From: Octopus vulgaris
Taxonomy: Eukaryota
Length of the DNA stretch: 64,000 bases
Assembly (NCBI GenBank): GCA_951406725.2
Contig: OX597815.1
Location: 199,826,001 to 199,890,000 of the forward strand
Direction of reading: 5' to 3'
A program made the translations under genes and the position numbers. Position 1 is the stretch's first letter, and every line of letters starts with the position of its first letter. Shown piece after piece: positions 20,073-64,000 of the stretch. The notes under the pieces are model-generated. The model ran no database searches. It was given only the letters and a program-made list of their open reading frames with translations, and had not been told where the DNA came from.

Positions 20073-20121
20073 TTACCTACCTACCTACCTACCTACCTAC
20101 CTACCTACCAACATACATACA

Positions 20122-20190
<69 letters not shown>

Positions 20191-20319
20191 GCCTGTCTGT
20201 CTGTCTACCTGTCTGTCAGTCTGTCTGCCTGTCTGTGTACCCATGTACCTACCAACATACCTACCTACCTACCTACTTACCTACCTACCTACCTATCTAC
20301 CTACCTACCTACCTACCTA

Positions 20320-21245
20320 GGCGATCCATTTGCTGTCAACACCCGTTAAAAGGAGGGCTGGGCATGCCGTGGTTGATGATGCGCAGACACGCGCTGAGAC
20401 TGCAGCATCTCTGGCTCTATGTAGACGACGGTGAACAGGTGTGGTCGCCGTTTGTGAGGCACGCTTTCCCGCAGCTCGTCTCCATGACCGAACTGCAGTC
20501 GTGGATCAAAAAGAGGCCGAGGAAGGGCGAATGGCACCGCGAGTGTCGCGTTGCTCTCAAGCAACTCTGCCGTCCTGGGTCGACCTTAAGTGACTTCAAC
20601 ACAACCAAAGCATTCTATAGGGGTTTAGTGGAGGGGAGGTACGACGACGAACTCGGGGCGAACCTGGACGTCGACGAGGAGTACCTGACCCGCCTGTTCA
20701 GGACGACTTTCGGGCCAGGGCCCATGGACAACTTCCAGAGATCCCTGGCCTGGCAGTGCTACCGAGAAGCGCTACCCGTTCGGGATAAGCTCTACAGACA
20801 CGGCTCGAGAAACACGGGGCCGACCTGCCCGAGATGCGGTCAGAGCGACGAAACCGTTCTGCACGCACTCGTTCAGTGCCCAACAATTTCCGACCTGTGG
20901 GCTTATGTCGAACAACTGCTGTCACGTGTGGGACGAGTCGGTTTATCAGCTGAGTCTATCGTCAATATTGTCACGCCTCCTTCCTTCAAACGGGAAGGAA
21001 GAGCTATTTTCATCATCCTTGTGGCTATGGCGAAAGAATGTATCTGGTGGACGCGTCTGAAAGGATTGGAGACAAACACTTTCCTCTCTGGTCAATCTCT
21101 CATCAACTTCTTCAAGTACCACTTGAAAAGGAAAGTGAGAGTAGAGAGGCAAGTTTTGTCTAGCGAATGTTTTAAAAAAAGATGGGTGAATGTAGCAAGA
21201 ATGGCACGTATGAATGACGAAGCCACCTTGAGCATAGTCCTATGA
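20320..21245 (+). CDS. Tx1/L1-like ORF2 C-terminal fragment with zf-RVT zinc-binding domain; no native start
   Basis: About 300 uninterrupted codons: [12 protein letters not shown] (post-RT GGLG motif), [15 protein letters not shown] and [18 protein letters not shown] (C-x2-C-x8-H-x4-C). The N-terminal part of track ORF 20052..21245 is read through microsatellite. Confidence 0.88.
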
Positions 21246-21529
21246 ACCCAGAAATCGAAAACAGAGAGTTGCTTATTTGCAAAAAAAAAAAAAAAAAAAA
21301 AAAGAAATATAAAATGTGACTTCATTGACCGAGGTTACCGTGGTCTTTTCCGTAGGCTTTTCTTTCCACGGGTAAACCTCACCTGTCCTCCCCTTTACAC
21401 TTCATATTGACATTTCTGTGATAACGATCCCTATTGATCAATTTTTTTTCCTCTCCCCCTTTTTTTTTAACCCCCTTTTTTTGTCCTCTTTCTCTCCTTT
21501 TACGATCCCTTTTGATCGAAACTCCCCCT

Positions 21530-21563
<34 letters not shown>

Positions 21564-21638
21564 CTTCAAAAGAAAAGCTCTACCTTGTAATTTGTTCTAT
21601 CTGTGTGCAGCCCTGTGTGGCTAATAAAGAAACATATC
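20320..21638 (+). mobile_element. Young 5'-truncated L1/Tx1-clade non-LTR retrotransposon (ORF2 C-terminus plus 3' UTR)
   Basis: GC-rich insert starting abruptly after (CCTA)n. Its pyrimidine-rich 3' UTR ends AATAAAGAAACATATCT. Confidence 0.92.
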
Positions 21639-22441
21639 TGATTATGTGAGTCAACATCTAGAATGTTTGTACATTGTCTCTTTCTTTCTCTCTCTCTCTC
21701 TCTCTTTCCCCTTCTCCTTTTCCCTATCCGTTTCCCTCTCTCTTCCACTCTCTGTATCTGCAAGAATATATTTCTGCACACGCCGACGTATGTTTGTCTC
21801 CAGTATCAAAATCTACTCTCACAAAAGCAGGCTGAATGCTCAGTCAGCCATGCCACATCGTAAATCTCTTTGTCGTAAATCGTAAATATCTTAGTCGCGG
21901 CTAACATTTCATTCTGTCACGCTGATTCTGCCGAAAGATTACGTTAAGGTTACAAATCTATACGGAAAGGCTCAGCTACATATTCCATAATACAAAAATT
22001 AGTCCTATTGTTCGAAGTAACTAGAATTCTCAGCAGGGAAAGCGACGAAAAATAGATCCTTTCGCGTTGTACATTTATTCTCAAGAAAATCAACTCGTTA
22101 TTGAAGGATTCCAGAAACTATTCGCCAATTTCAAACCAGTTTGTTTGTCCACACTACATTCGACAGAAGCCAATTCTTATATTGCAAATTACGGGATCCG
22201 ATGCTGGCTACGTGAAAGGACTTGATTTCAGTTGCTGGTCCCTTCTACTTGCACGTTACTAGTATTTCATAAATTGATAGATATCTGTTTAATTTGCTTG
22301 TCAAATTTGTTTGGCTTTCTTTTGTTTGTCGTACTTGGCTCAAGGCCACCATTTTGTTAGGAAAGTCGATATAGCCACTTACGTACTCACACACACACAC
22401 ATACACACATATACGCACACACAGACACACAGACGAGAGAG

Positions 22442-22472
<31 letters not shown>

Positions 22473-22770
22473 TTTATTCTTTCCTTTTTTTATTTTTTCC
22501 ATATAATGCATACATTAAAATTAGGTGTGTGTGCGTGCATGTGTATGTGTGAATGTGTACGCATGTGTGTATGAGTGTGTGTGTGTGTGTGCACGCGTAT
22601 GTATATGGAAGGATAGAGACTGAAACAAAGAAAGAAAGAGAGAGAGAGAGAGAGAATGAGAGAGACAGAAAGAGAGACTCATTGAGAAATACATAGATTT
22701 TCATGATGTGATCATAATAATCCGCAATATGAAAGAACCGAACGTTAGAGATAAGACACTTGGAGCTTAC

Positions 22771-22867
22771 CGTTTTCTTACAGTATTGCCAGATGCTGCA
22801 ACTCTCGTCTTCACCGAGAAGACGACAGTCGTAACATTTCGCCACGTAGTAAGACGATAACAAGCAT
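22771..22867 (-). CDS. Tentative coding exon of a Cys-rich (Ly6/uPAR-like) repeat protein
   Basis: Translates as [25 protein letters not shown], followed by a phase-0 donor ACG|GTAAGC. The acceptor is weak and no partner exon was found. Confidence 0.25.
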
Positions 22868-22910
22868 CTAGTGTACACACACACATACGCATTTATACAT
22901 ATCTCTATCT

Positions 22911-22967
<57 letters not shown>

Positions 22968-22976
22968 CATCCATCC

Positions 22977-23039
<63 letters not shown>

Positions 23040-23099
23040 CATCCATCCATCCATCTATCTCTCTATCTATCTGTTTATCTATCTATCTATCTGTAATTA

Positions 23100-23545
23100 A
23101 TAATATTAAGGACTGATAAGAAATATTAGAAATTTCTACAACCAGTGGCTTAGCGTGTAAACATTTAGTCAAGAGCCTATATATTATTCATATAAATACA
23201 GTGTACATTTAAGCACATAAGAGGCATCCATCATAGGATTCCTTGCACGCTAGGGCAAGGAGTTCAATGATGGATGCCTTTTATGTGTTTAAATGTACAC
23301 TGTATTTCGTTTTTGGATTTGGTTTGCAAGATTCTTTATATGAGCTCGTGTGTTGAAGCATATTCTCTTGTGTCTGGGGAGAGTCATTTTCTTTTTGTGC
23401 CTTATAATGTAACACACTCACCGGTAAAATTTCCACTTATTTCTTATTTTTATTTTCCTAAAATTTTCGATGCGTCTTGCAACCTTTTCAATAGTCTTGA
23501 CTCTCAACTAACTTGACTCTTGCAACCTTTTCAATAGTCTTGACT
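23100..23545. repeat. Composite interspersed repeat with a 53-bp hairpin (23194-23307) and a terminal 28-bp direct repeat
   Basis: The hairpin was paired base by base. TCTTGCAACCTTTTCAATAGTCTTGACT occurs at 23475-23502 and 23518-23545. Confidence 0.7.
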
Positions 23546-24209
23546 TTGTCCGTTATTTACACTGCGTTCCTTTTTGCTTGTTTGTGCGCATGTGTGTGTG
23601 GGTCAGTGTGTGTGTGTGTGCCTATACATGCATGTACGCATGTATGTGTGTATATATGTATGCATGTGTGTATGTATGTATATATGTATGTGTATGCATA
23701 TGTATATATGTATGTATGTGTGTGCATCTGTATGTAGCCTGCATATTCATGTGCTTTTATGTCCGTGTTTGTGTATTTTCCATGTATGTGTGTGTGAGCG
23801 TGTGTTTATATATGTATGCATCTCTGTCTCCTTGTGTGTGCATGTTTGTGTATGTGTGTGTTTTGCAACTATGTACCATGTTTGTATGTATGGATGTGCA
23901 TCTCCATATGTGTGGACCCGTGTCTCCATATGTGTCCTTGTGTGAAGTAAAATGTGTGTATATATATATGGTCATGTGTTTAAGTCTCCATTTGCGTATG
24001 TGTGCTTGTCTGTTCTTATAACCTATGTACCTATCCGTCTATATGTTGATCTGTTTATTTTCATATCTATATGCTTACATACAAAAACAATTACATGTGC
24101 ACACACCCCCACACCCCCACACACACATACATACATCAATCTACATAATAGTCCACTAACTATTCTACTCTACCTGTGTAAACTGTGGGTATGGAGGTAT
24201 GTTATCTAC

Positions 24210-24300
24210 TATGTATATTTCCTAGTTAGTATTGGGGGTGTTTCATTTATGAGGACGTCCTCTTGTATTTGTCTGAGTATTGGGTCCTTTGGGTGCTTGG
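24210..24300 (-). pseudogene. Possible Penelope GIY-YIG C-terminal fragment
   Basis: KHPKDPILRQIQEDVLINETPPILTRK resembles the R-x-I-x-E-A-x-x-I...P-x-L-N-x-K end of the domain. Confidence 0.4.
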
Positions 24301-24303
24301 ATG

Positions 24304-24515
24304 TCGATGGTATGCTGTAAAGGTACTAGCTTTGGGTAAAAGTACAGGAAGACCGGTTAATTATGATTGTATTCAACATATTCCCTTCTCAGATTCACAG
24401 ACCTATTGCAACGGTCCTTCAGTTTTCTAAGCCCTGAATGAACTCGGAAGACTGGACCTCCAGCCAGGCCCTTCGCGATACCCTTAAAGTAAGGAACTTT
24501 TCAGCACCTCCTCGT
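24304..24515 (-). mobile_element. Tc1/mariner-derived MITE
   Basis: Decayed ~30-bp terminal inverted repeats (CGA..G..TGCTG.AAAG.T.CT..CTTT versus AAAGTAAGGAACTTTTCAGCACCTCCTCGT). The inside resembles a mariner transposase C-terminus (G-E-Y-V-E-like end). Confidence 0.7.
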
Positions 24516-25017
24516 TTGCATGCATGCATGCATACATACATACATGCATGCATACATACACACATACATGCTTACATACATGCATACATACATACATGCA
24601 TACATACATGCATTCATGCATGCATACATACATAATACATACATGCATGCATACATGCATACATACATAAATACAAGCATGCATACATACATGCATACAT
24701 ACATAATGCATACATGCATAAATACATATAAACATGCATACATACACACATACTTACACATATACATACATACATATATATATTCATAAGTTAAATAATG
24801 AGAATAGAAATTAATATTATTAATCAATATCAATTTAAATCAGTAGCTAGCATACTTAAAAGTGTCATGTAATAAAATATATATATATATATTTATATAT
24901 ATTTAAAAAATAGGGTAAAATCTTAATAAGATAAAATTTTAATAAGAAATTATCAAGTAGTTCGCGTGAAAACCTCATAAGAGAAAAAATCTGTAAATTT
25001 TTTCACTTGAAAATATT

Positions 25018-25172
25018 TATTTATATTATATAGAGGGCACTATTACACATAGATGCCGCACGCTAGGAGAGACTTTTAAAGTCATAACTACCAAATATAA
25101 ACAAATCGTACCGAATGCAATTCTCGAAGCGAGTCATTTATGTGTAATAATGCCCTCTATATAATATAAATA
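25018..25172. repeat. 38-bp inverted repeat with 79-bp spacer in an AT-rich element
   Basis: 25018-25055 versus 25135-25172, two mismatches. Confidence 0.85.
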
Positions 25173-25817
25173 TATTTATATATATATACTTTTATTCTTT
25201 TATACGTTTCAGCCCTAAAGCTGTGGCCATGCTGGGGCACTGCCTGTGTAATCACCTTTTCAATTATCAATCTTATTTGATTGGCGTTTGGTGAACGAAG
25301 TACGTACTACTGAAATTAAAGTACAAACAGCTAAGTATTCTAGAGACAAGTTAAACGATATGATAATTCTGAGATTGAAACAGTTATAGCAATATGTAGC
25401 AATACTGGTCAGGGTTCGTCTGCTCGCTATGTAAATAGCCTGACACAAGATGCTAAAGAGTGGGTCCGAAAGTGAAAATCAATGATTGCAAGCCAACTTA
25501 GTAACCAAACACGCTATATCTGAGTTCATAATACACACACACGCACACACACACACACACATACACAGAAGTAAACGGACTCCGACACACACACACACAC
25601 AATTATGACGATAGTGAGGTTAATCAAGTGATTAAGAAGATAATTTAAATGTCGATTTTATATTAGCTCAAGTGTTTCATACAGATATTGTGCAGTATTT
25701 TTGTAATATTATTGAGTCTTCTGAAGATGAGGTGAATAACACTTCAAACACCTGGTATGGTGTAAGTATGACCAGAAGAAAATAAACACACGCGCACACA
25801 TACATATAGGCAAAAGA

Positions 25818-25859
<42 letters not shown>

Positions 25860-26210
25860 AAAAAAAAAAAGAAATATAAAATGTGACTTCATTGACCGAG
25901 GTTACCGTGGTCTTTTCCGTAGGCTTTTCTTTCCACGGGTAAACCTCACCTGTCCTCCCCTTTACACTTCATATTGACATTTCTGTGATAACGATCCCTA
26001 TTGATCAATTTTTTTTCCTCTCCCCCTTTTTTTTTTAACCCCCCTTTTTTTTGTCCTCTTTCTCTCCTTTTACGATCCCTTTTGATCGAAACTCCCCCTT
26101 CCTTTTTTTTTTTTTTTTTTTTTTAAACCTTCAAAAGAAAAGCTCTACCTTGTAATTTGTTCTATCTGTGTGCAGCCCTGTGTGGCTAATAAAGAAACAT
26201 ATCTATCTAT
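25860..26210 (+). mobile_element. 3' UTR copy of the Tx1-like LINE inside a (TCTA)n array
   Basis: Matches 21290-21638 apart from homopolymer lengths. (TCTA)n lies on both sides. Confidence 0.93.
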
Positions 26211-26227
26211 CTATCTATCTATCTATG

Positions 26228-26470
26228 TTTTTGTTCCTTTTCCTTTTCTTTTTTTCTTTCTTTTTATTCTTTTTATTTTTATTTTATTTATTTATTTATT
26301 TTTGTTCTTTTCTTCCCTTTTACGATCCCTCTTGATCGAAAACCTACGCCACCCCTTTTTTTTTCTTTCTTTTGTTTTTTGTTTTTTTCATCCCCAAAAA
26401 AGAAAAGCTCTACCTTGTAACTTGTCCCATCTGTGTGCAGCCCTGTGTGGCCAATAAAGAAACTTATCTA
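26228..26470 (+). mobile_element. 3' end copy of the Tx1-like LINE (related subfamily)
   Basis: CGATCCCTCTTGATCG hairpin and AAAAGCTCTACCTTGTAACTTGTCCCATCTGTGTGCAGCCCTGTGTGGCCAATAAAGAAACTTATCT, then (TCTG/TCTA)n. Confidence 0.9.
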
Positions 26471-26506
26471 TCTGTCTGTCTATCTGTCTGTCTATCTGTC
26501 TGTCTA

Positions 26507-26588
<82 letters not shown>

Positions 26589-26645
26589 CATCGATCTATC
26601 TATGTGTATGTACATATATACATACGTACATACATGCACACATAC

Positions 26646-26690
<45 letters not shown>

Positions 26691-27139
26691 TATACGCGAG
26701 TGTCTGAATACATACACACACTCACACATGCATTAAAGAAGAAAGAAAATGGCAATTAGGAAATTAATAATTGTTTATTTTAGTCTGCTCAAACGAATTG
26801 ATAAGCCCACATATAACATCTTTTTTCCTCTGATGAAATTATACTCATGTCACATAAATGTAAATTTAAAGCACAAGTTTGTAATTAAATCATTGAGAAT
26901 TAATTGAAACGGCTGCAAAAAGCAAAGATGACTAATTTGTTGTTAACAATAAACGATTATTAACTTCGTAATCTCCGTTTCCTTTTGTTCTTTTAAATGG
27001 ATATAAACTATATGCTTTATGTATACCTGTTATTTTAAGAGAATTCCTTTCCTCAAAATACTAGATATTGAACCAGTATTTCCTTCGATGAAACCGTCCC
27101 TTCATGAGGTTAACATATCCTCATACTAAATTTATATAC

Positions 27140-27230
<91 letters not shown>

Positions 27231-27233
<3 letters not shown>

Positions 27234-27418
27234 GATCCCTATTGATCGGTCCCACTTTTTTTTCACGATCCCTTTTGATCGGACCCCCCCTTTTTTTTCA
27301 CGATTCCTTTGATAGGAATTCGCCCCCCCTTTCCTCCTTCTTTTCTTCCCAAAAAGAAAAGCTCTACTTTATATTTTGTCCCTTCTGTGTTTAGCCCTAC
27401 GTGGCCAATAAAGAAATC

Positions 27419-27420
<2 letters not shown>
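27231..27420 (+). mobile_element. Diverged 3' end copy of the Tx1-like LINE
   Basis: Three CGATC..GATCG-type motifs and AAAAGCTCTAC...GTGGCCAATAAAGAAA, then a long (TCTA)n. Confidence 0.85.
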
Positions 27421-27487
<67 letters not shown>

Positions 27488-27619
27488 GTCTATCTATCTA
27501 TCTATCTATCTATTGACCTAAATATGTTTGTATCAAAGACCTTTTATACTTCATATAATCAGCTAATACTTGTAGGAAAGTAATGAACATCTCTGCTGCT
27601 CTGATCTTGCGTTTGTGGG

Positions 27620-27990
27620 TGAAGGCGAATGGCCTGGTGTATCGGATTTTCAGATCATTATCACATGGTCGTGTGTTCAATTCCTGAACAAAGCAGCGCG
27701 GTGTGCCCTCGAGGCAGTCACTTTATTTCAGGTTGATACACTCTTATTTAATTGTAAATGAGCATCAATCACCCTGGTACTAATGCAGCTCCCCTATCTC
27801 CACTCATCACACTGAGCCAAAAATTAGCGTGTCAGTCTACTGTTTGTCTATGTCTGCTTGCGACAACGAAAGCACGGTAACGTTCCAAGCGATACTCGCT
27901 CGCGAGTGACAGTTCATTGTACTTCATACGTCTAGGGAAATCTCACTGTCTGACCAGACGAATGATCAAGCATTCAAGTCTATCCGATTA
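27620..27990 (+). mobile_element. Old degraded CORE-type SINE
   Basis: Decayed head TGAAGGCGAATGGCC...GTTCAATTCCTG and CACTTTATTTCAGGTTG, similar to 34711-34830. Confidence 0.55.
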
Positions 27991-28388
27991 TTGATTTTCA
28001 TGATTATAATTTAATGTGGTAGTAATCCATTACTCCATTACTGTGATCGAATACTGTGATCAGTCGCCAGACAAAACTCAAGTCAGTATTCAACACATTG
28101 AATTTTAGTAGTTATGTTAAAGTCTTCTATTGCCGAACCAGTTATTGAACTATTTCTTTTCATCCACCGAGAAACATAGTCGTATATTATATGTATGTAT
28201 ATAGTCGCCCATACACACACACTACACACACACACATATACACTCACTCAAATGTATATATATATATATAAGCATATATTTGCGCGTTACACACACTACA
28301 CACACACACATATACACTCACACAAATGTAAATATATATATATATGTGCATACATATATATGTATATATATATGTACATATATATGTA

Positions 28389-28436
<48 letters not shown>

Positions 28437-28466
28437 TATATATATATATGTATGTATGTACATACT

Positions 28467-28497
<31 letters not shown>

Positions 28498-28512
28498 GTA
28501 TGCACATACTTG

Positions 28513-28583
<71 letters not shown>

Positions 28584-28680
28584 GCTTATATTTATATATT
28601 CATACACACACACACTTATACATACATATATACATACATACACTATGAATGTGTGTATATGAGTATATATAAATTGAATG

Positions 28681-28862
28681 GAGAAGGTAAATCTGTTCTA
28701 CAAATATTTCCGAGCCAATTTGAATATGTGTTACGTAACACACATATTCCGCTTGCAATTCACACGAAAACAAAGCTAGATGCATATTCCACAGCTTGAA
28801 GTTAGGTAACACACGTTCAAATTGGCTTGGAAACAATGTAGCACAGGTTTACTTACCTCTTC
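28681..28862. repeat. Foldback/MITE-like element with ~55-bp imperfect inverted arms
   Basis: 28707-28739 pairs with 28801-28833 (4 mismatches). GTAAATCTGTTCTACA and TGTAGCACAGGTTTAC extend the pairing outward. Confidence 0.75.
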
Positions 28863-29341
28863 TGTTCCCTACAACTATCAATCTATAATCGTATAATTTA
28901 TAATTTTCGTTTCCAAACCGCGTGTTGTATAGTTGCAGCCATCTAATTCGATATGGGACGGAGTGTATAACATGCGTTTATTAATCAACTCTGTGGATCG
29001 TGTATCATCTGTTTTATGTCATTTATACGAGCCGTGTAGATGCTTGATGCTTGATGCTAAATATGTGTTTGTACCAAGAAACCAAGATCATTTTGGAACT
29101 CTCCACTCTATTACTACATACATAAATGCACACATACAAATATACATGCACCCACACACACATATACATTCACACGAACGCACATGCATTCGTACATATC
29201 TGCGCGCGCGCACATACACACACACAAGCTTACATATATCTGCATGTGCAAGCATAAAATATTTACATGCACACACACAAACACACGCACGCGCACGCGC
29301 GCACAGACACTTCGTACACATATAAACTTAGGATCACTTGA

Positions 29342-29759
29342 AGGCGGTGAGCTGGCAGAAAGGTTAGCACGCCGGGCGAAATGTTTAGAGGTATTTCGTC
29401 TGCCACTACGTTCTGAGTTCAAATTCCGCTGTGGTCGACTTTGCCTTTCATCCTTTCGGGGTCGATTAAATAAGTAACAGCTACGCACAGGAGTCAATAT
29501 AATCGACTAAATCCGTCTGTCTGTCCTTGTTTGTCCTCTCTGTGTTTAGCCCCTTGTGAGTAGTAAAGAAACAGCTATATTGTCCGTGTGAACGTTCTGC
29601 GTTCGAATTCCGCCGAGGTCGACTTTGCCTTTCATCCTTTTGGGGTCGATAAATTAAATACCAGTTACGCACTGGGGTCGATGTAATAGACTTAATCCCT
29701 TTGTCTGTCCTTGTTTGTCCACTCTATGTTTAGCCCCTTGTGGGCAATAAAGAAATAAG
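29342..29759 (+). mobile_element. SINE family B, tandem dimer
   Basis: A full unit followed by a 5'-truncated second unit from about 29592. Confidence 0.9.
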
Positions 29760-30395
29760 AGCAACAGCTCTTTGCAAGTTACAAATGATGGGCGATTTTT
29801 CTGCAAATGTTTTTTGCAATGTTTGCAACTGACGACAATACTTCTCCACATTAACCGTTTCCTGTCTTTTTATTTCGCTAGTTGTGTATAAAAATTGAAA
29901 TATGATAAAAGTTTCATAAGAAAAAAAGATATGATGCACCATTTACAAAGAAGAGAATAAAAAGTTCTTTGAAATGGAATAAAGAAGTTCATTATGGAGA
30001 ATCCATTATTCAGCTAGTAAGGCCATCGAGAAGGATTGTAGCAAAATCTATCATCCTAGTCACGACGGCCTGTAAGAGGAGCTCTTTATGCGAGTCGTTC
30101 TGTTTATTTTATCAACAAATTTTAAAAATATTTTTAATGTTACTAAAAATGTATCATGGTAGACTACATCATCCACATCTCACCGAACACAGAGTATAAC
30201 CTTTCTGGTGTATACTTCTGATTTGGGGGAATATATTCTCGTTCTTTATTGGATGTTAATCAGTTTCGTTTCATCGGCTATGATTAAAGAGAACGTGGTT
30301 ATGTTACGCATGAAAGGTTCGATAGCAGGTCTACACTTCAATGACGATCGAAGTGCAACGATTTGATTCAGCTTAGAAGCAGGTATATGATGAGA

Positions 30396-30626
30396 GGCGA
30401 CGAGCTGGCAGAAACGTTAGAGCGCCAGGCGAAATGCTTAGCGGTCTTTAGTCTGTCGCTACGTTCTGAGTTCAAATTCCGCCGAGGTCGACTTTGCCTT
30501 TCATCCTTTCGGGGTCGATTAAATAAGTACCAGTTACGCACTGGGGTTTCATATAATCGACTTAATCCGTTTCTCTGTCCATGTTTGTCCTCTCTGTGTT
30601 TAGCCCCTTGTGGTTAGTAAAGAAAT
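30396..30626 (+). mobile_element. SINE family B monomer
   Basis: TSD AGGTATATGATGAGAG at 30381-30396 and 30627-30642. Confidence 0.93.
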
Positions 30627-30871
30627 AGGTATATGATGAGAGAAGCACTGGCTAAGTTTCCAGATATTTCGAAGTTCATGAAGGTACTTTACGATGTAAG
30701 TGTGACTTGAATTGAACTGTTTTGCTAATTATTGCGGTGATTGCTTTCAATTATCCTCAACTACGCTTTTTAGAATCTCAATATCGACAGAATTTGGTCA
30801 TCCAGATTGAGACGAAACTTCAAGAAAACAATTTGCCGAACGACATTGCTTGCCCAAACCATCGTTGGCGT

Positions 30872-31308
30872 GGAAGCACTCCGTCGGTTACGACGACGAG
30901 GGTTCCGGTTGATCCGAATTACCTTGTAACTTGTCCCATCTGTGTGCAGCCCTGTGTGGCCAATAAAGAAACTTATTTATCTATCTATCTCGTGAAATTA
31001 ACGTGTAAGTGGCTGAGCACTCCACAGACACGTGTACCCTTAACGTAGTTCTCGGGGATATTCAGCGTGACACAGAGAGTGACAAGGCCGGCCCTTTTGA
31101 AATACAGGTACAACAGAAACAGGAAGTAAGAGTGATAAAAAGTTGTGGTGAAAGAGTACAGCAGGGATCACCACCATCCCCTGCCGGAGCCTCGTGGAGC
31201 TTTAGGTGTTTTCGCTCAATAAACACTCACAACGCCCGATCTGGGAATCGAAACCGCGATCCTATGACCGCGAGTCCGCTGCCCTAACCACTGGGCCATT
31301 GCGCCTCC
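30872..31308 (-). mobile_element. SINE group C (head C1 plus tail T1)
   Basis: TSD ACCATCGTTGGCGT at 30858-30871 and 31309-31322. Confidence 0.93.
30918..30990 (+). mobile_element. ~70-bp extreme 3' end of the Tx1-like LINE nested in the SINE
   Basis: TACCTTGTAACTTGTCCCATCTGTGTGCAGCCCTGTGTGGCCAATAAAGAAACTTATTTATCTATCTATCT matches 26411-26470. Confidence 0.9.
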
Positions 31309-31672
31309 ACCATCGTTGGCGTATTTGTTTACTCAAGACAGAAAGAATAATGTTTTGCCGATTCCATTGCTGTAGAGTCCATTTTGAATTCCAACAGCAA
31401 GGAGTGTCTTAAATGGATACGACCTACAGGCATTTTGAAAGGGTAAAGTCGATACAAATCCACCCACACTGGTAGCAGTTAATCTGCAAAAACAAAAAAA
31501 AAAAGGAAAAGAGAAAAAAAATGAGTATAAAAATTTATGCTTATTATACCGTAAATATTTAAAAAAAACTACGTTCATAATGATTCGAACACGCGACAGA
31601 CCTTTCTTTCCAAACACCTAACATGTGCATATATGTATGTTGGTTTACACACATACATATATACCTATATAC

Positions 31673-31909: not shown

Positions 31910-32886
31910 GAACCCAGAACCTTGTGGTTGGTAAGCAAGCTACTTACCACACAGCTACTGCTGAACCTTATACATATATACACACATGAATATATATACA
32001 TATATAAATATACACATAAATATATACTTATATAGTTACATACACACATATGTACATACAAAGATATCTACCTACCTCCTTACCTACCAACCTACCTTCG
32101 TATCTAACTACCTACCTACATACAAACTTACATACGTATACAAGATCTAGCCATTTACAAATTAGAAAAGTGTTACCGAGATCAGTGAACAAAGAGGTCA
32201 CAGAATTGTGACAAAAGACTTCGATGCCCATACAAGTTATTAAAGAAGAAAGAAGTTAATAATTATAAAATAATCAATTAATGTGTTTACTTAATTATAG
32301 ACAAAGGGAAATTGAAGAAAAAATTGCTTCCAAATACGATAGCAGCTTAAAAATAATAATAAAAAAATGTTAGCTAATCACAAACGAAGAAGAAATAATA
32401 TGCGAGAAGAAAGGGATTAGGAACTGTTGTGGCGAGAGTCATTGACACCCCTGTGAGATTGGAAGAATGGATTAACCCAACTTTTATAAAGAGAAGGATA
32501 TTGGTTGAGACGAGAGAGGTCGTAGGAGTCGCTGAGAGTTCGTGGAAGTTGTAGGAGGTCGCTGAGATCTTTGAGAGTTTGTATTTATCGGAGTATCGTG
32601 TTTAGTGGAGTAATTTGAAGTACTTAATCCCTTTGTCTGTTCTTGTTTGTCCCTTCTGTGTTTAGCCCTTTGTGGGTGGTAAAGAAATAGGTAAGTAGGT
32701 AAGAAGGTAGGTAGATATCTTTGTATGTACATATGTGTGTGTGTGTGTGTGTGTATGTAACCATATAAGTATATATTTATGTTTATATTTATGTATATAT
32801 ATGTATTCATGTGTGTATATATGAATAAGGTTCAGGAGTAGCTGTATGGTAAGTAGCTTGCTTACCAACCACAAGGTTCTAGGTTC
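31910..32886. repeat. Local inverted duplication (31910-32087 versus 32695-32886)
   Basis: The arms share a family A SINE head and over 100 bp of the same flanking sequence, e.g. CATATGTACATACAAAGATATCTACCTACC. Confidence 0.88.
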
Positions 32887-34710: not shown

Positions 34711-35041
34711 ATTGTGAGGGCGCGTGGCTTAGTGGTTAGGGCATTCGGCTCATGATCGTAAGGTTGTGAGTTCGATTCCCGGCGACGCGTTGTGTCCTTG
34801 AGCAAGACACTTTATTTCACGTTGCTCCAGTCCACTCAGCTGGCAAAAATGAGTTGTACTTGTATTTCAAAGGGTCAGCCTTGTCACTCTCTGTGTCACG
34901 CTGATTATCCCCGAGAACTACGTTAAGGGTACACGTGTCTGTGGAATGCTCAGCCATTTGCACGTTAATTTCACGAGCAAGCTGTTCCGTTGATCGTATC
35001 AGCTGGGACCCTCGTCGTCGTAACCGGCGGAGTAAGAAAGA
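34711..35041 (+). mobile_element. SINE group C (CORE-type head C2 plus tail T1)
   Basis: Boxes TGGCTTAGTGG and GAGTTCGATTCC, CORE-like GTGTCCTTGAGCAAGACACTT. TSD ATTGTGAAACA at 34700-34710 and 35042-35052. Confidence 0.92.
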
Positions 35042-40404: not shown

Positions 40405-41280
40405 GAGGCGGCGATCTGACAGAATCGCTTGCACGCCGGATAAAATGCTTATCAGCATTTCATCCATCTTTACGTTCAAATCCTACCGTGCTCGACTTTG
40501 CCTTTCATCATTTCGGAGTTGATAAAATAAATACCAGTTGAGCACTGGGATCGATGTATTCGACTTTTCTCACTCCCCTAAAATTTCTGGCCTTATGCCA
40601 AAATTTGAAATCAATATCACATGATGTGTAAAGCAGTGACTAACAGAATCGTCAGCACGTCAGAAGGCGGCGAGCTGGCAGAAACGTTGGCACGCCGGGC
40701 GAAATGCTTAGCGGTCTTTCGTCTGCCGCTAGGTACTGAGTTCAAATTCCGCAGAGGTCGACTTCGCCTTTCATCCTTCTGGAGTCGATTAAATAAGTAC
40801 CAGTTACGCACTGGGGTAGATATTATCGACTTAATCCTTTTGTCTGTTCTTATTTGTCTCCTCTATGTTTAGCCCCTTGTGGGTAATAAAGAAATAGGTA
40901 TTTCGTTTGCCGCTATGTTCTGAGTTCAAATTCCGCCGAGGTCGACTTTGCCTTTCATCCTTTCGGGGTCGATTAAATAAGTACCAGTTACGCACTGGGG
41001 TCGATATTTTACGACTTAATCTGTTTTGTCTGTCCTTGTTTGTCCCCTCTGTGTTTAGCCCCTTGTGGGTAGTAAAGAAATAAGAATCGTCTGCACGTCA
41101 GGCGAAATACCTAGCGGCATTCCGTCCGTCTTTTTGTTTTGAGTTCAAATTCTACCGAGGTCGACTTTGCCTTCCATTTTCTTTCGGGTTCAAGAAATCA
41201 AGTACCGGTTGAGCACCAGAGCTGATTTAAATGAGTTAATCCTTTCCATACAATTATCTGTGTTGTGCCAAATTTTATAA
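40405..41280 (+). mobile_element. Nested cluster of family B SINEs: two older copies plus a young dimer at 40665-41083
   Basis: AATATYACATGATGTGT is duplicated near 40388 and 40613. AGAATCGTCWGCACGTCAG is duplicated near 40646 and 41084, around the young dimer. Confidence 0.88.
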
Positions 41281-43552: not shown

Positions 43553-43649
43553 ATGTTTGTGTATATATAATCTAGCATATAACGTTGTTTTCGCTAATGT
43601 AACACAAATGCATATATTTCTGATTCACTGTTATAGTAGCGGGAGTGGG

Positions 43650-45312
43650 TGGTGATGTGTTTGTGTGTGGCGGGGGGGTGGGTGCACTCTTTGGTGGTGG
43701 TGCTGGGTCTGGGGGCGGGAGGTGGGGCGGATGTCGGAGGTAAAGCCGCTGTTGGCCGTAGTGGTTGCAGCAACTGTGGTGGTGGTTGCGGTAGTGGTGG
43801 TGGTGTTGGTGGTGGTGGTGGTGGTGGTGGTGTTGGTGGTGGTGGTGGTGGTGGTGGTGGTGGTGGTGGTGTTGGTGGTGTTGGTGGTACCGTCGGATAT
43901 TGGTGAGAGCGGCCATGCTGTCGTTGGGGGTGGGTGTGTTATGTTTGTGCTAATGGCGGCGGCGATGGTGGTGGTGTTGGTGGTGGTGGCGGTGGTGGTT
44001 GGTGGCGGTGGTGGTGGTGGTGTTGGTGGTGGTTGGTGGTGGTGGTGGTGTTGGTGGTGGTGGTGGTGGTGGTTGGTGGTGGTGGTGGTTGGTGGTGGTG
44101 GTGGTGTTGGTGGTGGTGGTGGTGGTGGTGGTGGTGGTGGTGGTGGTGGTGGTGGTGGTGGTGGTGGTGGTGGTGGTGGTGTTGGTGGTACCGTCGGATA
44201 TTGGTGAGAGCGGCCATGCTGTCGTTGGGGGCGGGGGGGGGGGGGGGGAGGCTAATGTTTGTGCTAATGGCGGCGGCGGCGATGGTGGTGGTGGTGGTGG
44301 TGATGGCGGTGGCGGTGGAGGCGATGGTGGCGGTACTGGTGGTGACGTCGGGGGTGGGGGTGGGGGTGGTTGTTGTGATGGCGGACTCGGTTATTTGTGG
44401 TTTTAGTAATGGCGATAGTGCCGTGTGGATGTGGTGCTGGTGGTGATGATGGTGATGGTTGTGCTTGTAATAGGGATGTTAGTTGTGATGATGGCGGGGG
44501 TGATGGTGGTGGTGATGGTTGTGGTGGTGGTGGCGGCGGTGAATTTGGTAACGGCGGTGATGATGCTTATGGCGGAGATGGTGATGGCAGCGGTGGTGAT
44601 GGTGATGGTGATGGTGATGTCGATGGTGATCATGGTTGTGGTGGTGATGATGATGGTGATGATAATGCTCATGGTGGCGATGTGGCGGTGGTAGTGCTGA
44701 TGGTAGTTGTGGTGGTGGCGATGGTGGTGGTGGTGATGGTGGTGGTGGTGGTGGTAGTGCTGATGGTAGTTGTGGTGGTGGCGATGGTGGTGGTGGTGAT
44801 GGTGGTGGTGGTGGTGGTGATGGTGGTGGTGGTGATGCTGGTAGCGGTAGTACTGGTGGTAGTAGTGGTGATGGTAGTGGTGATGTTGTCGATGGTGGCG
44901 GTGGTGTGTTTTGGTGATGCCATTAGTGGCGATGTGGATGCTGATAATATATGTAATGGCGGTGGCGGGGGCGCTGCTGGTGGTATTGGCAGCAATTGTG
45001 ACTGTAGTGGTGTTGATGGTGGTGGTGGTCACGATATCGAAGTTTTAAATCAGTGGCGGCGGCGGCAGCAGTGGTGGTGGTGGTGGTGGTGGTTGCGGTG
45101 GTGATATTCATAAGAAGATTGATAGCATTTTTTTCTTCTGGTATATCATTGGTGTTGACAGGTAGGAATGGCACGGTAGGGGTGGTGGTGGTGATGGTGG
45201 TGGTGATGATGGTGGTGTTGTTGGTGGTGAAAGTGTTAAAGTTGATGGACGTGTAATGTTACGTTAGTGAAGACGGCAACGGTGGTGGTGATGGTGGTGG
45301 TGGTGGTGGTGT
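43650..45312. repeat. G-rich (GGT)n/(GAT)n low-complexity tract with internal tandem duplications
   Basis: GGTACCGTCGGATATTGGTGAGAGCGGCCATGCTGTCGTTGGGG occurs near 43886 and 44187. A ~63-bp unit is duplicated at 44690-44820. Confidence 0.92.
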
Positions 45313-45774
45313 TAATTTTGATTGAGGTTAGGGTTGAAGGAGAGAGAAACTGACGGAAGAAAAAGAATGAGAGAAACAGAGGAGGGAGGGGAGAGAGGAG
45401 AGAGGGAAAGAGTGGAGAGAAAGAAATAGAGGGGTGTGTGTGAGTAGAGAGTGTAAAGAGAGGATGAGGAGGAAGAGGAGGAAAAAGGGGATAGAGATTA
45501 GAGAGGAAGAATTCTGGAAAGTAAACGAGTTAGAGAGAGAGAAAGAGAGAGAGAGAGGGGAGAGAGAGGGAGAGGGAAGGGAAGGCGGGAGAAAGAGAGA
45601 AAGAGAGAAAGAAAAAGAGAAAGAATGAAGGTGAAGGAGATAGTGAGGGCTTGTACAATGAAATATGATGCACACAAACATAAACACACAAACATATATG
45701 TACACATATTTATATATATGCATACATACATATATATATACATATGTGTATGTATATGTGTATATATGTATATA

Positions 45775-45816
<42 letters not shown>

Positions 45817-45886
45817 TATGTATGTGTGTATATATATGCATACATATATACATATATACATAGTTATACATACATACATTCATATG

Positions 45887-45922
<36 letters not shown>

Positions 45923-46054
45923 TGTATGTATGTATGTATGTATGTATGTATGTATGTGTGTATATGTATATGAATGAACGAGCGAGAGAGAAGGAGGAGG
46001 CAATGGAGAGAATTTCAATGATAAAACAACACGAAGAAAACCACCACTCAAAAT

Positions 46055-46095
46055 ACCACCACCACCACCACCATCATCATCAACATCATTCTTAA

Positions 46096-46126
<31 letters not shown>

Positions 46127-46136
46127 GTCATCATCG

Positions 46137-46186
<50 letters not shown>

Positions 46187-46300
46187 GTCATCGTCATCGT
46201 CATCATCATCATCATCATCGTCATCGTCATCGTCATCATCATCATCATCATCATCATAATCATCATCGTCATCATCACGCCGCCACCGCCATCATCGTCA
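46055..46300. repeat. (CAT)n trinucleotide array
   Basis: Direct inspection. Confidence 0.95.
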
Positions 46301-52299: not shown

Positions 52300-52963
52300 A
52301 TTGATTAGATTGCAGCCGCACTAGAATACCACTTGAAAGAACTTTTTGGGGCGAATGAATCAAGCGTAGTAATTATTCTTTCGATATCATTTGCCAACCG
52401 CTAAGTCAAATGGACGTAAATACACCAGAACCGGTTGGCAAGTTTGGACGGACGGACACACACACACACACACACACGCATACACACACACACTATCTAT
52501 ATATCTATCTTTACGACGGGCTTCTTTCTGTTTCCTATTTTTTATTGCCCACAAGGGGCTAAACACAAAGGGGATAAACAAGGACAGACAAAGGGATTAA
52601 GTTCGATTACATCGATCCCAGTGCTAAGCAATTCGCCCGGCGTGCTAACGACTCTGCAAGCTTGTCGCCTTGGTTTTATGTATAATAATTATTTCAAATT
52701 TTTGCCACAAGGGCAGCTTGCGGGAGGTGGAGATAAATCGATTACATCGTCCCCAGTGTTCAAGTGGTAATTGTTTTATCGACCCCGAAAGGATGAAAGG
52801 CAAAGTCGACCACGGCGGAATTTGAACTCAGAACGTAAAGATACACGAAATACCGCAAGCGTTTCCGCTCAATAAATACTCACAATGCCCGATCTGGGAA
52901 TCGAAACCGCGATCCTACGACCGCGAGTCCACTGCCCTAAGCACTGGGCCATTACGCCTCCAC
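52300..52963 (-). mobile_element. Pile-up of SINE fragments: family A tail, family B (52536-52866) and group C head (52867-52963)
   Basis: Each segment matches the reverse complement of complete copies elsewhere in the window. Confidence 0.8.
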
Positions 52964-55799: not shown

Positions 55800-55841
<42 letters not shown>

Positions 55842-55921
55842 TGATGATGGTAGCGAAAAACAATATATAAATTATAGTAATAATAATCTTAATGAAGAAA
55901 ATGAAGAGCAAAAGAAAAACA

Positions 55922-56003
55922 AAGAAGAAGAAGAAGAAGAAGAAGAAGAAGAAGAAGAAGAAGAAGAAGAAGAAGAAGAAGAAGAAGAAGAAGAAGAAGA
56001 AGA
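55922..56003. repeat. (GAA)n array
   Basis: Direct inspection. Confidence 0.95.
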
Positions 56004-56146
56004 AATAATTACGCATCAAGTTATCAAAACAAAACAATGTCCCACCCAACCCACCATGTTCTTGTTTCCAATTGGAACTTGGAAGCCGAAGTCTTTTTCG
56101 ATCAAACGAAAAGATACATACATACATTCACCATACATATATATAT

Positions 56147-56196
<50 letters not shown>

Positions 56197-56269
56197 GTTT
56201 GTATGTATGTATGTATATACCAGAAGCAACAACAACAGAGAAACTATTTCCAATTATTCGGCCATGTTG

Positions 56270-56453
56270 CTTCTTTCTCTCCCTCTCTCTCTCTCCCTCT
56301 CTCCCTCTCATTTACATCATTTGTCCTTCTCTCCGTTTCTCTCCTTTCCTCAGTCTTACGCATCTACATTATCCATCATTCTCTTTTTATCAATGCCTTC
56401 TTTTCTATCATCCTCTTGTTCTGCTTATATACTCGATACAAATACTCTCTCTC

Positions 56454-56484
<31 letters not shown>

Positions 56485-56523
56485 AAGCCTTCCCTTTATC
56501 TCTGCCTACCACACATTGTTTCA

Positions 56524-56561
<38 letters not shown>

Positions 56562-56637
56562 CTCTCTCTCTACTTCTCTCTCTCTACTTCTCTCTCTCTC
56601 TCTACTTCTCTCTCTCTCTACTTCTCTCTCTCTCTCT

Positions 56638-56699
<62 letters not shown>

Positions 56700-56756
56700 C
56701 TCTGTCTCTACTTCTCTCTCTCTACTTCTCTCTCTCTCTACTTCTCTCTCTCTACT

Positions 56757-56788
<32 letters not shown>

Positions 56789-56792
56789 CTCT

Positions 56793-56861
<69 letters not shown>

Positions 56862-56902
56862 CTCTGTCTCTACTTCTCTCTCTCTACTTCTCTCTCTCTC
56901 TC

Positions 56903-56937
<35 letters not shown>

Positions 56938-57493
56938 CTCTCTCTCTCTTTCTTATTTTCATTCTCTCCTTCGGTCTCTCTCTCTCTCTCTCTTTTCTCT
57001 CTTATTTTCATTCTCTCCTTCGGTCTCTCGATATACCACACAATTGTTTGTTTTTATCCTCGCCCCTCCTCTCTTTTATTCAAATCCACTCTCTTTCGTT
57101 TTCCCTTCCTTTCATTTTATATTATTGTTTTCTCATTTGCTCTCTCTCTCACTCTCTCTCTCTCTCTCCCTGTCTCTCTCTCCGTTTCTCCTTCTCATTC
57201 TTTCGCTCTATCCTTAACGCATGCAATCACTCTGACGTTCTCTCACTGACTTCCTCCATTTTGTTCCCCATTTTCTCTTTTGTTTTGTCGCCCACTCTCT
57301 TCCCCCTCTCTCACACTCGCTTGTTATTCTTCTCCCTTTTGTTCTCTCCAACTTACTCTCTCTCTACCGCTCTCTTACTCACTATCTTTCTTGTTCTACT
57401 TCTCTCTCTTTTGTTCTGCCACCCACCAACACTCTCTCTCTCTGTCAATCATTTATTCTCCCTTATCTCTTTTCGGTCCTTTCTATAGTTCCT

Positions 57494-62908: not shown

Positions 62909-64000
62909 ATGGCTTTACTCAGAAGTATCAGTGTGAATGCGTGTGACCTAGGATGGCTTTGAAAGCGACCTCAGGTCACAAGTTATAGAAGCTGTGTCCA
63001 TCAACGAGACCAGAATTTCCGAAGTACGATCATCACACCCACTGTCGGCAGCTTTCATGTATTTCCATCACCAAACCACCAAGGATTGGGAGGCGGAGTC
63101 GACGTGTTGGCCAGATGCTGGGTGCCGGACGGAGTGGTTAAGTTGTTCGGTATCAGGTTTCTTCAAGATCAACAAGTGAAGAAGAACTGAGATGAGGCGG
63201 CAAGCAGAATGCAGATATATATTTTCAACACCCGTTGAATGAAGAACAGGGCATGCCGTGATTAATGGTGTTCAGACATGCGCTGAGACTGCGGCATATC
63301 CAACATCTTTGACGGTGAAACTGTTTGGTCGCCCGCCGTTTGTCAGACGCGTCTCTCCCAACTCGTCGCTTTAGCGGGGCTGCAGTTTGGGTTATGCTCA
63401 GACGTGTGTGTGTGAGAGATAGATAGATAGAGAGGGAGTGAGAGATAGAGAGAGAGAGAGTGAGAGAAAGAGTGCTTGGTATCTAGAATGTCGTCAGGCT
63501 CTCACATGTAGGATGGAATTGGCTATCGGCAGAGTCTATTTTGAAGATCGACGTCCTTCCCTCCTTTGGTCAGGAAGAGAAGATACATTTTATTTCTTCG
63601 ATGGCCTTGTCGAAAGATGTTGTGAGGTGGACAAGACTGAAAGAGCTGAAGGCTCTCACAACCTTCCACCAGTGAGGAAATGGAGTCAGTAGAAATTCCA
63701 CTCCAGCATTCGATAGATGATTAACGGCGGACAGATACCATGAATTCCTTCGAGAAAACCTAACCATTGACCAAAACTGGCATGCTAGACTATTCTGGAG
63801 GATTTCTCTTACTTGGCCCATAGATAAAGTCCCCAAATCCCTGGCCTGGTATTGCTCCCGAGGGGCATTACAGTGCTGGTAGTGCTACCAATGAATTCTT
63901 TAAGCATGGTAGTGCTGGCAACCAGACCGGCTCAAGATCCGTGCACAGCGACGAAATTGTTCTGCACACACTCGTTCAGTGCCCAATATTTGGATTTATT
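62909..64000 (+). pseudogene. Old, internally deleted Tx1/L1-like ORF2: APE endonuclease start joined to the C-terminal zf-RVT region
   Basis: MALLRSISVNACDL...DLRSQVIEAVSINETRI...GGGVDVL resembles the APE motifs N-x-x-GL, L-x-ET and GGVA. 63226 onward aligns with 20337 onward, and 63940-63990 aligns with 20835-20888. Confidence 0.8.

Follow-up and report, generated by a model that had tools for sequence, protein, structure and literature searches.

Several long interspersed nuclear element (LINE) families of the Tx1 group insert into microsatellites, among them Kibi in (TC)n, Koshi in (TTC)n and the crocodilian Tx1-1_Crp group in (TTCC)n or (TTTC)n, a family being called microsatellite-specific where more than 20% of its copies are flanked by the target repeat (PMC4494074). 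For LINEs of other clades, ACAY, AC and TAA are named as targets, and the way in which microsatellite-targeting LINEs locate their repeat is said to be poorly understood and is usually credited to the endonuclease (PMC3812793). LINE 3′ repeats that overlap the target have been reported in clades CR1, L2 and RTE (PMC6007223), and slippage on the terminal TGTAA unit has been described for UnaL2 (PMC3747384). In Octopus vulgaris, 80 L1-Tx1 consensus families account for 56 Mb, with recent activity in 13, and no L1-like group other than L1-Tx1 appears among the active families; the results and methods sections of that study contain no analysis of targets or tails (PMC13282606). Here we analyse a 64-kb window of O. 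vulgaris DNA (contig OX597815.1, positions 199,826,001 to 199,890,000), a microsatellite-rich stretch of animal DNA with 235 tandem-repeat entries, in which five LINE copies (A–E) end in TATC-type repeats. We read them, with a probability of roughly one half, as 5′-truncated copies of one abundant L1/Tx1-like LINE whose UAUC-ended RNA primes on matching DNA and thereby biases insertion towards (TATC)n. The observations that bear on this reading are the 3′ ends and their flanks, a remnant of the second open reading frame (ORF2), three subfamily types, a TATC tail on copy E outside any array, and a short interspersed nuclear element (SINE) that carries the 3′ motif and not the repeat.

Five LINE 3′ ends share a terminal repeat

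Five 3′ ends on the + strand finish in AAAGAAA at positions 21632 (A), 26197 (B), 26462 (C), 27416 (D) and 30971 (E). They share the motif end AATAAAGAAA, followed by a 2-nt spacer (CA in A and B, CT in C and E, TC in D) and then by TATCT or (TATC)n, with TAT(C/T)T standing in the same register, 2 nt past AAAGAAA, in all five ends and across the three subfamily types. An earlier note on this DNA had reported five same-strand 3′ ends running into an ATCT-type repeat; all are present, but the literal join it gave, AATAAAGAAAATCT, matches none of them with up to two mismatches, as the 2-nt spacer intervenes. The repeat that follows is short in A (1.25 units, TATCT only) and comprises 6.8 TATC units in B, about 35 mixed TATC/TGTC units in C, 24.5 in D and 4.25 in E, whose 17-nt tail reads TATT-TATC-TATC-TATC-T. 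AATAAA is located ahead of the terminal repeat in the LINE 3′ ends, an arrangement described for tandem-repeat-ended LINEs such as UnaL2 and ZfL3 (PMC4758252). Because TATCT occurs within 11 nt of only 2.8% of random + strand positions, its presence at five of five ends is not due to chance, and shared ancestry makes these ends one fact, not five.

When the 64 kb were searched with nhmmer, using a profile built on the last 69 nt, copies A–E were recovered at E ≤ 2.3e-17; the only other matches below E 0.6 were nine weaker SINE ends, and no further LINE-type 3′ end was found by this profile in the window. The five copies cluster within 9.3 kb (P = 0.002, or 0.011 counting four sites). An assembly artefact as the whole explanation was ruled out by the three distinct subfamily types and by the clean SINE host of copy E with its duplication. 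Beyond the window, viral, metagenome and prokaryote genome collections contained no match to the LINE 3′ motif, six short 3′-end motifs looked up in paper texts led to 37 papers with no cephalopod study among them by title, and the eight primer pairs taken from PMC6404728 showed by eye no likeness to the LINE 3′ end.

Copy A (20319..21639, +) consists of the ORF2 C-terminus, 35 nt, a run of 23 adenines, a pyrimidine-rich 3′ segment of about 330 nt, the shared motif end, CA and TATCT. The other four are 3′ fragments on the same strand: B (25860..26204) extends from the adenine run through CATATCT; C (26227..26464) represents a second subfamily with the 3′ segment only, its motif end followed by CT; D (27230..27416) is of a third, more diverged type; and E (30920..30990) consists of a last 54 nt equal to those of C and then the 17-nt tail. 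A and B lie 4.6 kb apart and differ by 0 substitutions over 330 aligned nt, with homopolymer length differences only; C and E, 4.5 kb apart, show 0 substitutions in 54 nt, while their tails differ at 3 of 17 positions. ACGATCC...GAT(C) units, each a small palindrome, recur in the 3′ segment, with two in A and in B, one in C and three in D (21424–21519, 26324–26340 and 27231–27317).

Insertion sites and flanking arrays

Copies B and C, of different subfamilies, sit in one array. B is flanked in phase by (ATCT)10.5 directly 5′ (25818..25859, +) and by (TATC)6.8 on its 3′ side (26200..26226, +); the latter doubles as the 5′ flank of C, which adjoins it directly and ends in a longer (TATC/TGTC)35 array (26465..26603, +). 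TATC thus stands on both sides of two of the five copies, in this single array of the window, which speaks for a preference left unexplained by pure tail seeding. Copy A adjoins the last (TACC)n block of a compound array (20074..20319, +), (TACC)n-(TATC)17-(TGTC)n-(TACC)n, at its truncated ORF2. D adjoins (TC)17(TA)25 on its 5′ side and an (ATCT)24.5 array on its 3′ side (27416..27513, +). Both (TACC)n at A and (TA)n at D share part of the TATC unit. The three 5′ repeat flanks claimed in the earlier note, (TACC)n for A and (TATC)n for B and C, are real, but since the 3′ array of B is the 5′ flank of C, two of them belong to one site.

TATC stands directly upstream of 1.9% of + strand positions, and the arrays make up about 2% of the window. 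Against this background, a 5′ TATC flank in at least two of five copies has P = 0.0035, and P = 0.0026 (at least two of four) is obtained once TACC is admitted after the fact. The window holds 15 arrays with at least four perfect TATC units; three start at a LINE 3′ end, five touch or nearly touch a copy and ten have no adjoining LINE. Same-strand orientation of the copies was discarded as independent evidence, with 14 of the 15 arrays and eight of nine SINE 3′ ends also on the + strand. The strand bias extends to the TACC, TGTC and TCCA arrays (11 of 11 on +), CA arrays being even (16:15), and is perhaps tied to the direction of transcription or replication.

The host of copy E is a tRNA-derived SINE (30872..31309, −) that is bounded by a 13–14 bp target-site duplication. 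Relative to one paralogue (34977–35033) about 16 bp of host sequence are missing at the insertion, and the joints show a 2-nt filler 5′, a shared CT 3′ and no duplication, so E may be a repair-type insertion. The paralogue head of the host SINE (34720–34789) gives a weak tRNA match of 25 bits, below the gathering score. As the empty paralogue has no TATC and E carries 4.25 units, these units came with the template. The earlier note had placed a tailed copy near 30918 in non-repeat DNA; the tail is present, but its site is this SINE. That note had weighed an endonuclease that targets the repeat against an RNA tail that primes on or seeds it, and took the copy to favour the tail. Several units can indeed arrive with the template, but E does not separate the two models, because, under endonuclease targeting, read-through transcripts of a donor copy located in an array would leave the same tail.

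An ORF2 remnant and its L1-like relatives

Copy A, the only copy to retain coding sequence, starts abruptly in frame at 20319–20322 and continues for 303 stop-free codons to 21245. This open C-terminal part of ORF2 (20322..21245, +, stop at 21243–21245) contains a zf-RVT domain (E 3e-8). It shares 62% identity with a protein of Argonauta hians and 62–72% with ORF2 homologues that bear a reverse transcriptase (RT); in those at 62–71% the sequence extends upstream into the RT domain (RVT_1 plus zf-RVT). The longest homologue, P0003, has human L1 ORF2p as its best solved relative (E 4e-50, 10 sequences matched) and matches R2 proteins at E 4e-24 or weaker; by these comparisons the RT of this homologue is closer to L1 than to R2. 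The apurinic/apyrimidinic endonuclease (APE)-type family PF03372 was detected on full-length relatives at about 40–45% identity to P0003, and on no protein close to the truncated copy A. The zf-RVT domain, the RT-bearing homologues, L1 ORF2p as best solved relative and the endonuclease in full-length relatives together identify the element, at the level of sequence comparison, as an L1-like LINE, and the LINE identity given in the earlier note is to that extent supported.

Placement in Tx1 proper is likely, a label that draws on L1-Tx1 being the sole L1-like active group of O. vulgaris and on RT motifs taken to be Tx1-like. No protein named Tx1 was among the protein matches listed, and the ESM Atlas returned generic RT clusters only. 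Patterns from the protein alignment had 177, 101 and 64 matches in viral, metagenome and prokaryote collections, respectively, with no confirmed locus. Among 154 homologous proteins, none of those with a BLASTP match had a translated microsatellite beside the matched part, a screen of distant, frameshifted relatives that is no test of targeting.

The copy A family is a very high-copy one. Contigs aligned to a 959-nt part of ORF2 numbered 29,359, 19,549, 8,338 and 3 in four runs; runs X18–X24, whose share was small or nil, do not enter these counts. Although such contig depth is no copy number, it suggests a family size of the order of ten thousand copies. The allele of A at 20879 accounts for at most 2.4% of depth in run X1 and under 0.1% in X3 and X7, which suggests a small, young, lineage-biased subfamily; its allele at 20404 reaches at most about 2% of family depth in X1. 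Among 18 of the 1,553 loose contig ends, seven face 5′, and none of these reads TATC; all are LINE-like by eye, that is, diverged subfamilies. These contigs covered the ORF2 part, with the 330-nt 3′ segment outside the stretch aligned. In each of two runs, 20 contigs have a loose end at 21254, leading up to the adenine run (21281..21303, +), which lies 35 nt past the ORF2 stop and has no AATAAA ahead of it; since copy B also starts in the equivalent run, the run belongs to the family. This internal run (21281–21303 in A, 25860–25870 in B) may be a relic poly(A) that predates the present 3′ end.

A SINE shares the 3′ motif and ends in another unit

The nine weaker matches of the 3′ profile (nhmmer E 4e-8 to 4e-6 for all nine) are ends of an abundant SINE that shares its last 42 nt with the LINE; the eight on the + strand are identical to copies A, C and D at 31–36 of 42 nt (74–86%). 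None of the nine ends in TATC, the motif being followed mostly by TA(A/G)G. Target-site duplications of 20, 13 and 19 bp, placed 1–2 nt past AAAGAAA and starting GGTA, AGGTA and AGA, were recognized in three of seven configurations, a result scored as high by 1% of 2,000 random pairs; the other four configurations had no duplication; of these, two are truncated or mosaic copies and one overlaps a positive. In the copy at 30394..30632 (+), for example, AAAGAAA-T is followed by the 13-bp duplication starting AGGTA. In this SINE a similar 3′ motif is thus paired with a different terminal unit and with ordinary targets, which is what a role of the RNA end in choosing the site would predict; if the same enzyme moves both elements, the target follows the RNA end.

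The SINE occurs at 2125–2560, 29342–29755, 30394–30632, 32622–32687, 40665–41080 and 52538–52865, often as a dimer or nested in older copies of itself, with 13–20 bp duplications starting AG or GG. Its body is presumably of the Deu/Nin type. Predicted RNA folds of three SINE ends gave z-scores of −0.84, −0.68 and −1.78, with no stable hairpin in the motif alone, and Rfam returned below-threshold matches only (122 rows).

Mechanism and alternative explanations

Under our preferred reading the LINE RNA would end in a few UAUC units, supplied either by read-through into the array of the donor copy or by slippage of the reverse transcriptase. The endonuclease would nick, and the UAUC units would pair with the freed TATC-like DNA end and prime reverse transcription. 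Pairing would be best at (TATC)n, so arrays would take an outsized share of insertions, a preference that we extend to the genome scale by inference; landing sites outside arrays would receive short tails, some of which would later grow by slippage. This reading joins the two models of the earlier note and is the likeliest of those considered.

Several observations weigh against it. The sample is five copies at four independent sites, and the 5′ TATC flank has P = 0.074 when B and C are counted once (at least one of four). The RNA 3′ end is deduced, and ORF2 is joined to the 330-nt 3′ segment in copy A alone. Target-site duplications were tested for A, D and E and found in none of them, unlike in the SINE. 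RNA folding of four LINE ends gave z-scores of 0.25, 1.56, 0.11 and 1.18, with no stable 3′ stem-loop. Clustering in 9.3 kb and the identity of A with B and of C with E within 5 kb hint at local copying. Finally, a sister LINE with another endonuclease may move the SINE, in which case the SINE control is void.

A specialist of the Kibi/Koshi type, whose endonuclease cuts (TATC)n, is a possible though not a likely account of the same copies, with the tail of E as read-through RNA from an array donor inserted off target. It would readily accommodate B and C, which share one array and have repeats on either side. Tx1 families are described with (TC)n, (TTC)n, (TTCC)n and (TTTC)n as targets (PMC4494074), the pyrimidine-rich strand is the sense strand of the element here, and D and A possibly lie at edges of compound arrays; but the 5′ flanks of three of the five copies (A, D and E) are not TATC, the site of E is unlike TATC, and none of the nine ends of the motif-sharing SINE is in TATC. 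Pure tail seeding, with insertion free of any preference and GATA arrays that arise and expand from the LINE tail, is very unlikely. The short tails of E and A before non-array DNA and the long 3′ arrays of D and C are what it would produce, and LINE tails have been reported as seeds in snakes, for CR1-L3 and AATAG, although in the same source no element is enriched beside ATAG arrays (PMC6050309). The TATC 5′ of B, however, cannot derive from the tail of B, and with ten of 15 arrays lacking an adjoining LINE, seeding as their main source is unsupported in the window.

Copying at the DNA level would instead reduce the five copies to three retrotranspositions, with B derived from the 3′ segment of A and E from that of C by break repair through TATCT or CT homology, and would make the array association partly a repair artefact. 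We consider this quite unlikely. The absence of substitutions between A and B (330 nt) and between C and E (54 nt), in neighbours 4.6 and 4.5 kb apart, fits such copying, as do the confinement of all five to 9.3 kb and the deletion, filler and 2-nt homology at E; moreover, the alleles of A at 20404 and 20879 are rare in the family, which makes a pair of such neighbouring copies unexpected. Identical short copies are nevertheless also expected from young subfamilies, the tail of E is unlike that of C at three of 17 positions, and a fixed 3′ end with variable 5′ truncation is the pattern of reverse transcription. B and C, furthermore, are of different subfamilies, so their array took two templates.

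A broader history, unlikely as it stands, would be that an octopod Tx1-like LINE exchanged its poly(A) end, with the adenine run as relic, for a captured 42-nt motif and an exchangeable tetranucleotide tail. The 42-nt recognition motif would then be shared with one of the dominant SINEs of the genome, and targets would be chosen by the tail and not by the endonuclease, as TATC in the LINE and TA(A/G)G in the SINE. Such an element would be a specialist of GATA repeats guided by its RNA, and the first LINE of the Tx1 clade to partner an animal SINE with a shared tail.

Other features of the window

The region 63214–63986 contains an ORF2 fragment, old and rearranged, that is related to copy A in short pieces out of order (39–59% amino acid identity); a (GATA)3(GA)n tract oriented oppositely to the TATC tails interrupts it. 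At 43572–46291 and 55801–57250, long trinucleotide-type (CAC/CAT/GAT/GAA) and (CT)n tracts produce extended open frames that are spurious. Among the ORF2 matches, a Rho-GEF gene model of O. bimaculoides (P0005) is 83% identical to LINE ORF2 over its first 46 residues, and its start is either an annotation slip or a captured exon.

Comparison with known systems

Like Kibi, Koshi and the Tx1-1_Crp group, the LINE described here combines an L1/Tx1-like ORF2 with copies inside a short-unit array, repeat on both sides and tandem copies in one array. It differs from them in its unit, TATC not being among the targets named in PMC4494074 and PMC3812793, in the lack of TATC at the 5′ side of three of its five copies, and in a clade placement that is likely only. 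In carrying AATAAA and a short tandem repeat in place of poly(A), it resembles UnaL2 (TGTAA) and the RTE, CR1 and I-factor types, and it shares with the repeat-tailed LINEs that have partner SINEs a 3′ motif held in common with a SINE and a tail that overlaps the target (PMC3747384, PMC6007223). As far as these sources list them, those LINEs, unlike this one, belong to the L2, CR1, RTE or I clades, and the UnaL2 type further differs in the stable 3′ stem-loop, for which we found no counterpart.

Table 1 of PMC3747384 lists no Tx1 or L1 partner among animal SINE/LINE pairs, the L1 pairs there belonging to plants and an alga. Tx1 mobilizes SINEU, but this SINE is poly(A)-tailed and lacks a 3′ part of LINE type (PMC4494074). 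Microsatellite seeding by LINE tails is described in snakes (PMC6050309, PMC8303610); like the snake CR1-L3/Rex elements with AATAG (PMC6050309), the present LINE has 3′ ends that adjoin a purine/pyrimidine-asymmetric array, but its clade and unit are different, most arrays are without a LINE (three of 15, in one window, start at a LINE 3′ end) and the repeat also stands 5′ of some copies.

Our literature searches, which did not extend to Repbase, Dfam or the O. vulgaris library, found no TATC- or GATA-linked Tx1, nor any animal SINE that shares its tail with a Tx1 LINE, the original octopus SINE and Tx1 papers being outside their reach. The LINE of copies A–E is probably among the O. vulgaris L1-Tx1 families of PMC13282606, and Repbase, Dfam or further Tx1 targets listed in PMC4494074 could overturn the novelty of the TATC unit and the SINE link. 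For octopod GATA marker loci, the copies are a warning that some have repetitive flanks. The LINE may also name the mobilizing partner of an abundant octopus SINE, and a high-copy LINE paired with a motif-sharing SINE that lacks its terminal repeat would allow enzyme specificity and RNA-end pairing to be tested directly against each other. Microsatellite-targeting Tx1 families and repeat-tailed LINEs are already known; what is probably new here is the TATC unit and the SINE link, which together make this element a probable new flavour of a known habit and not a new mechanism or element class.

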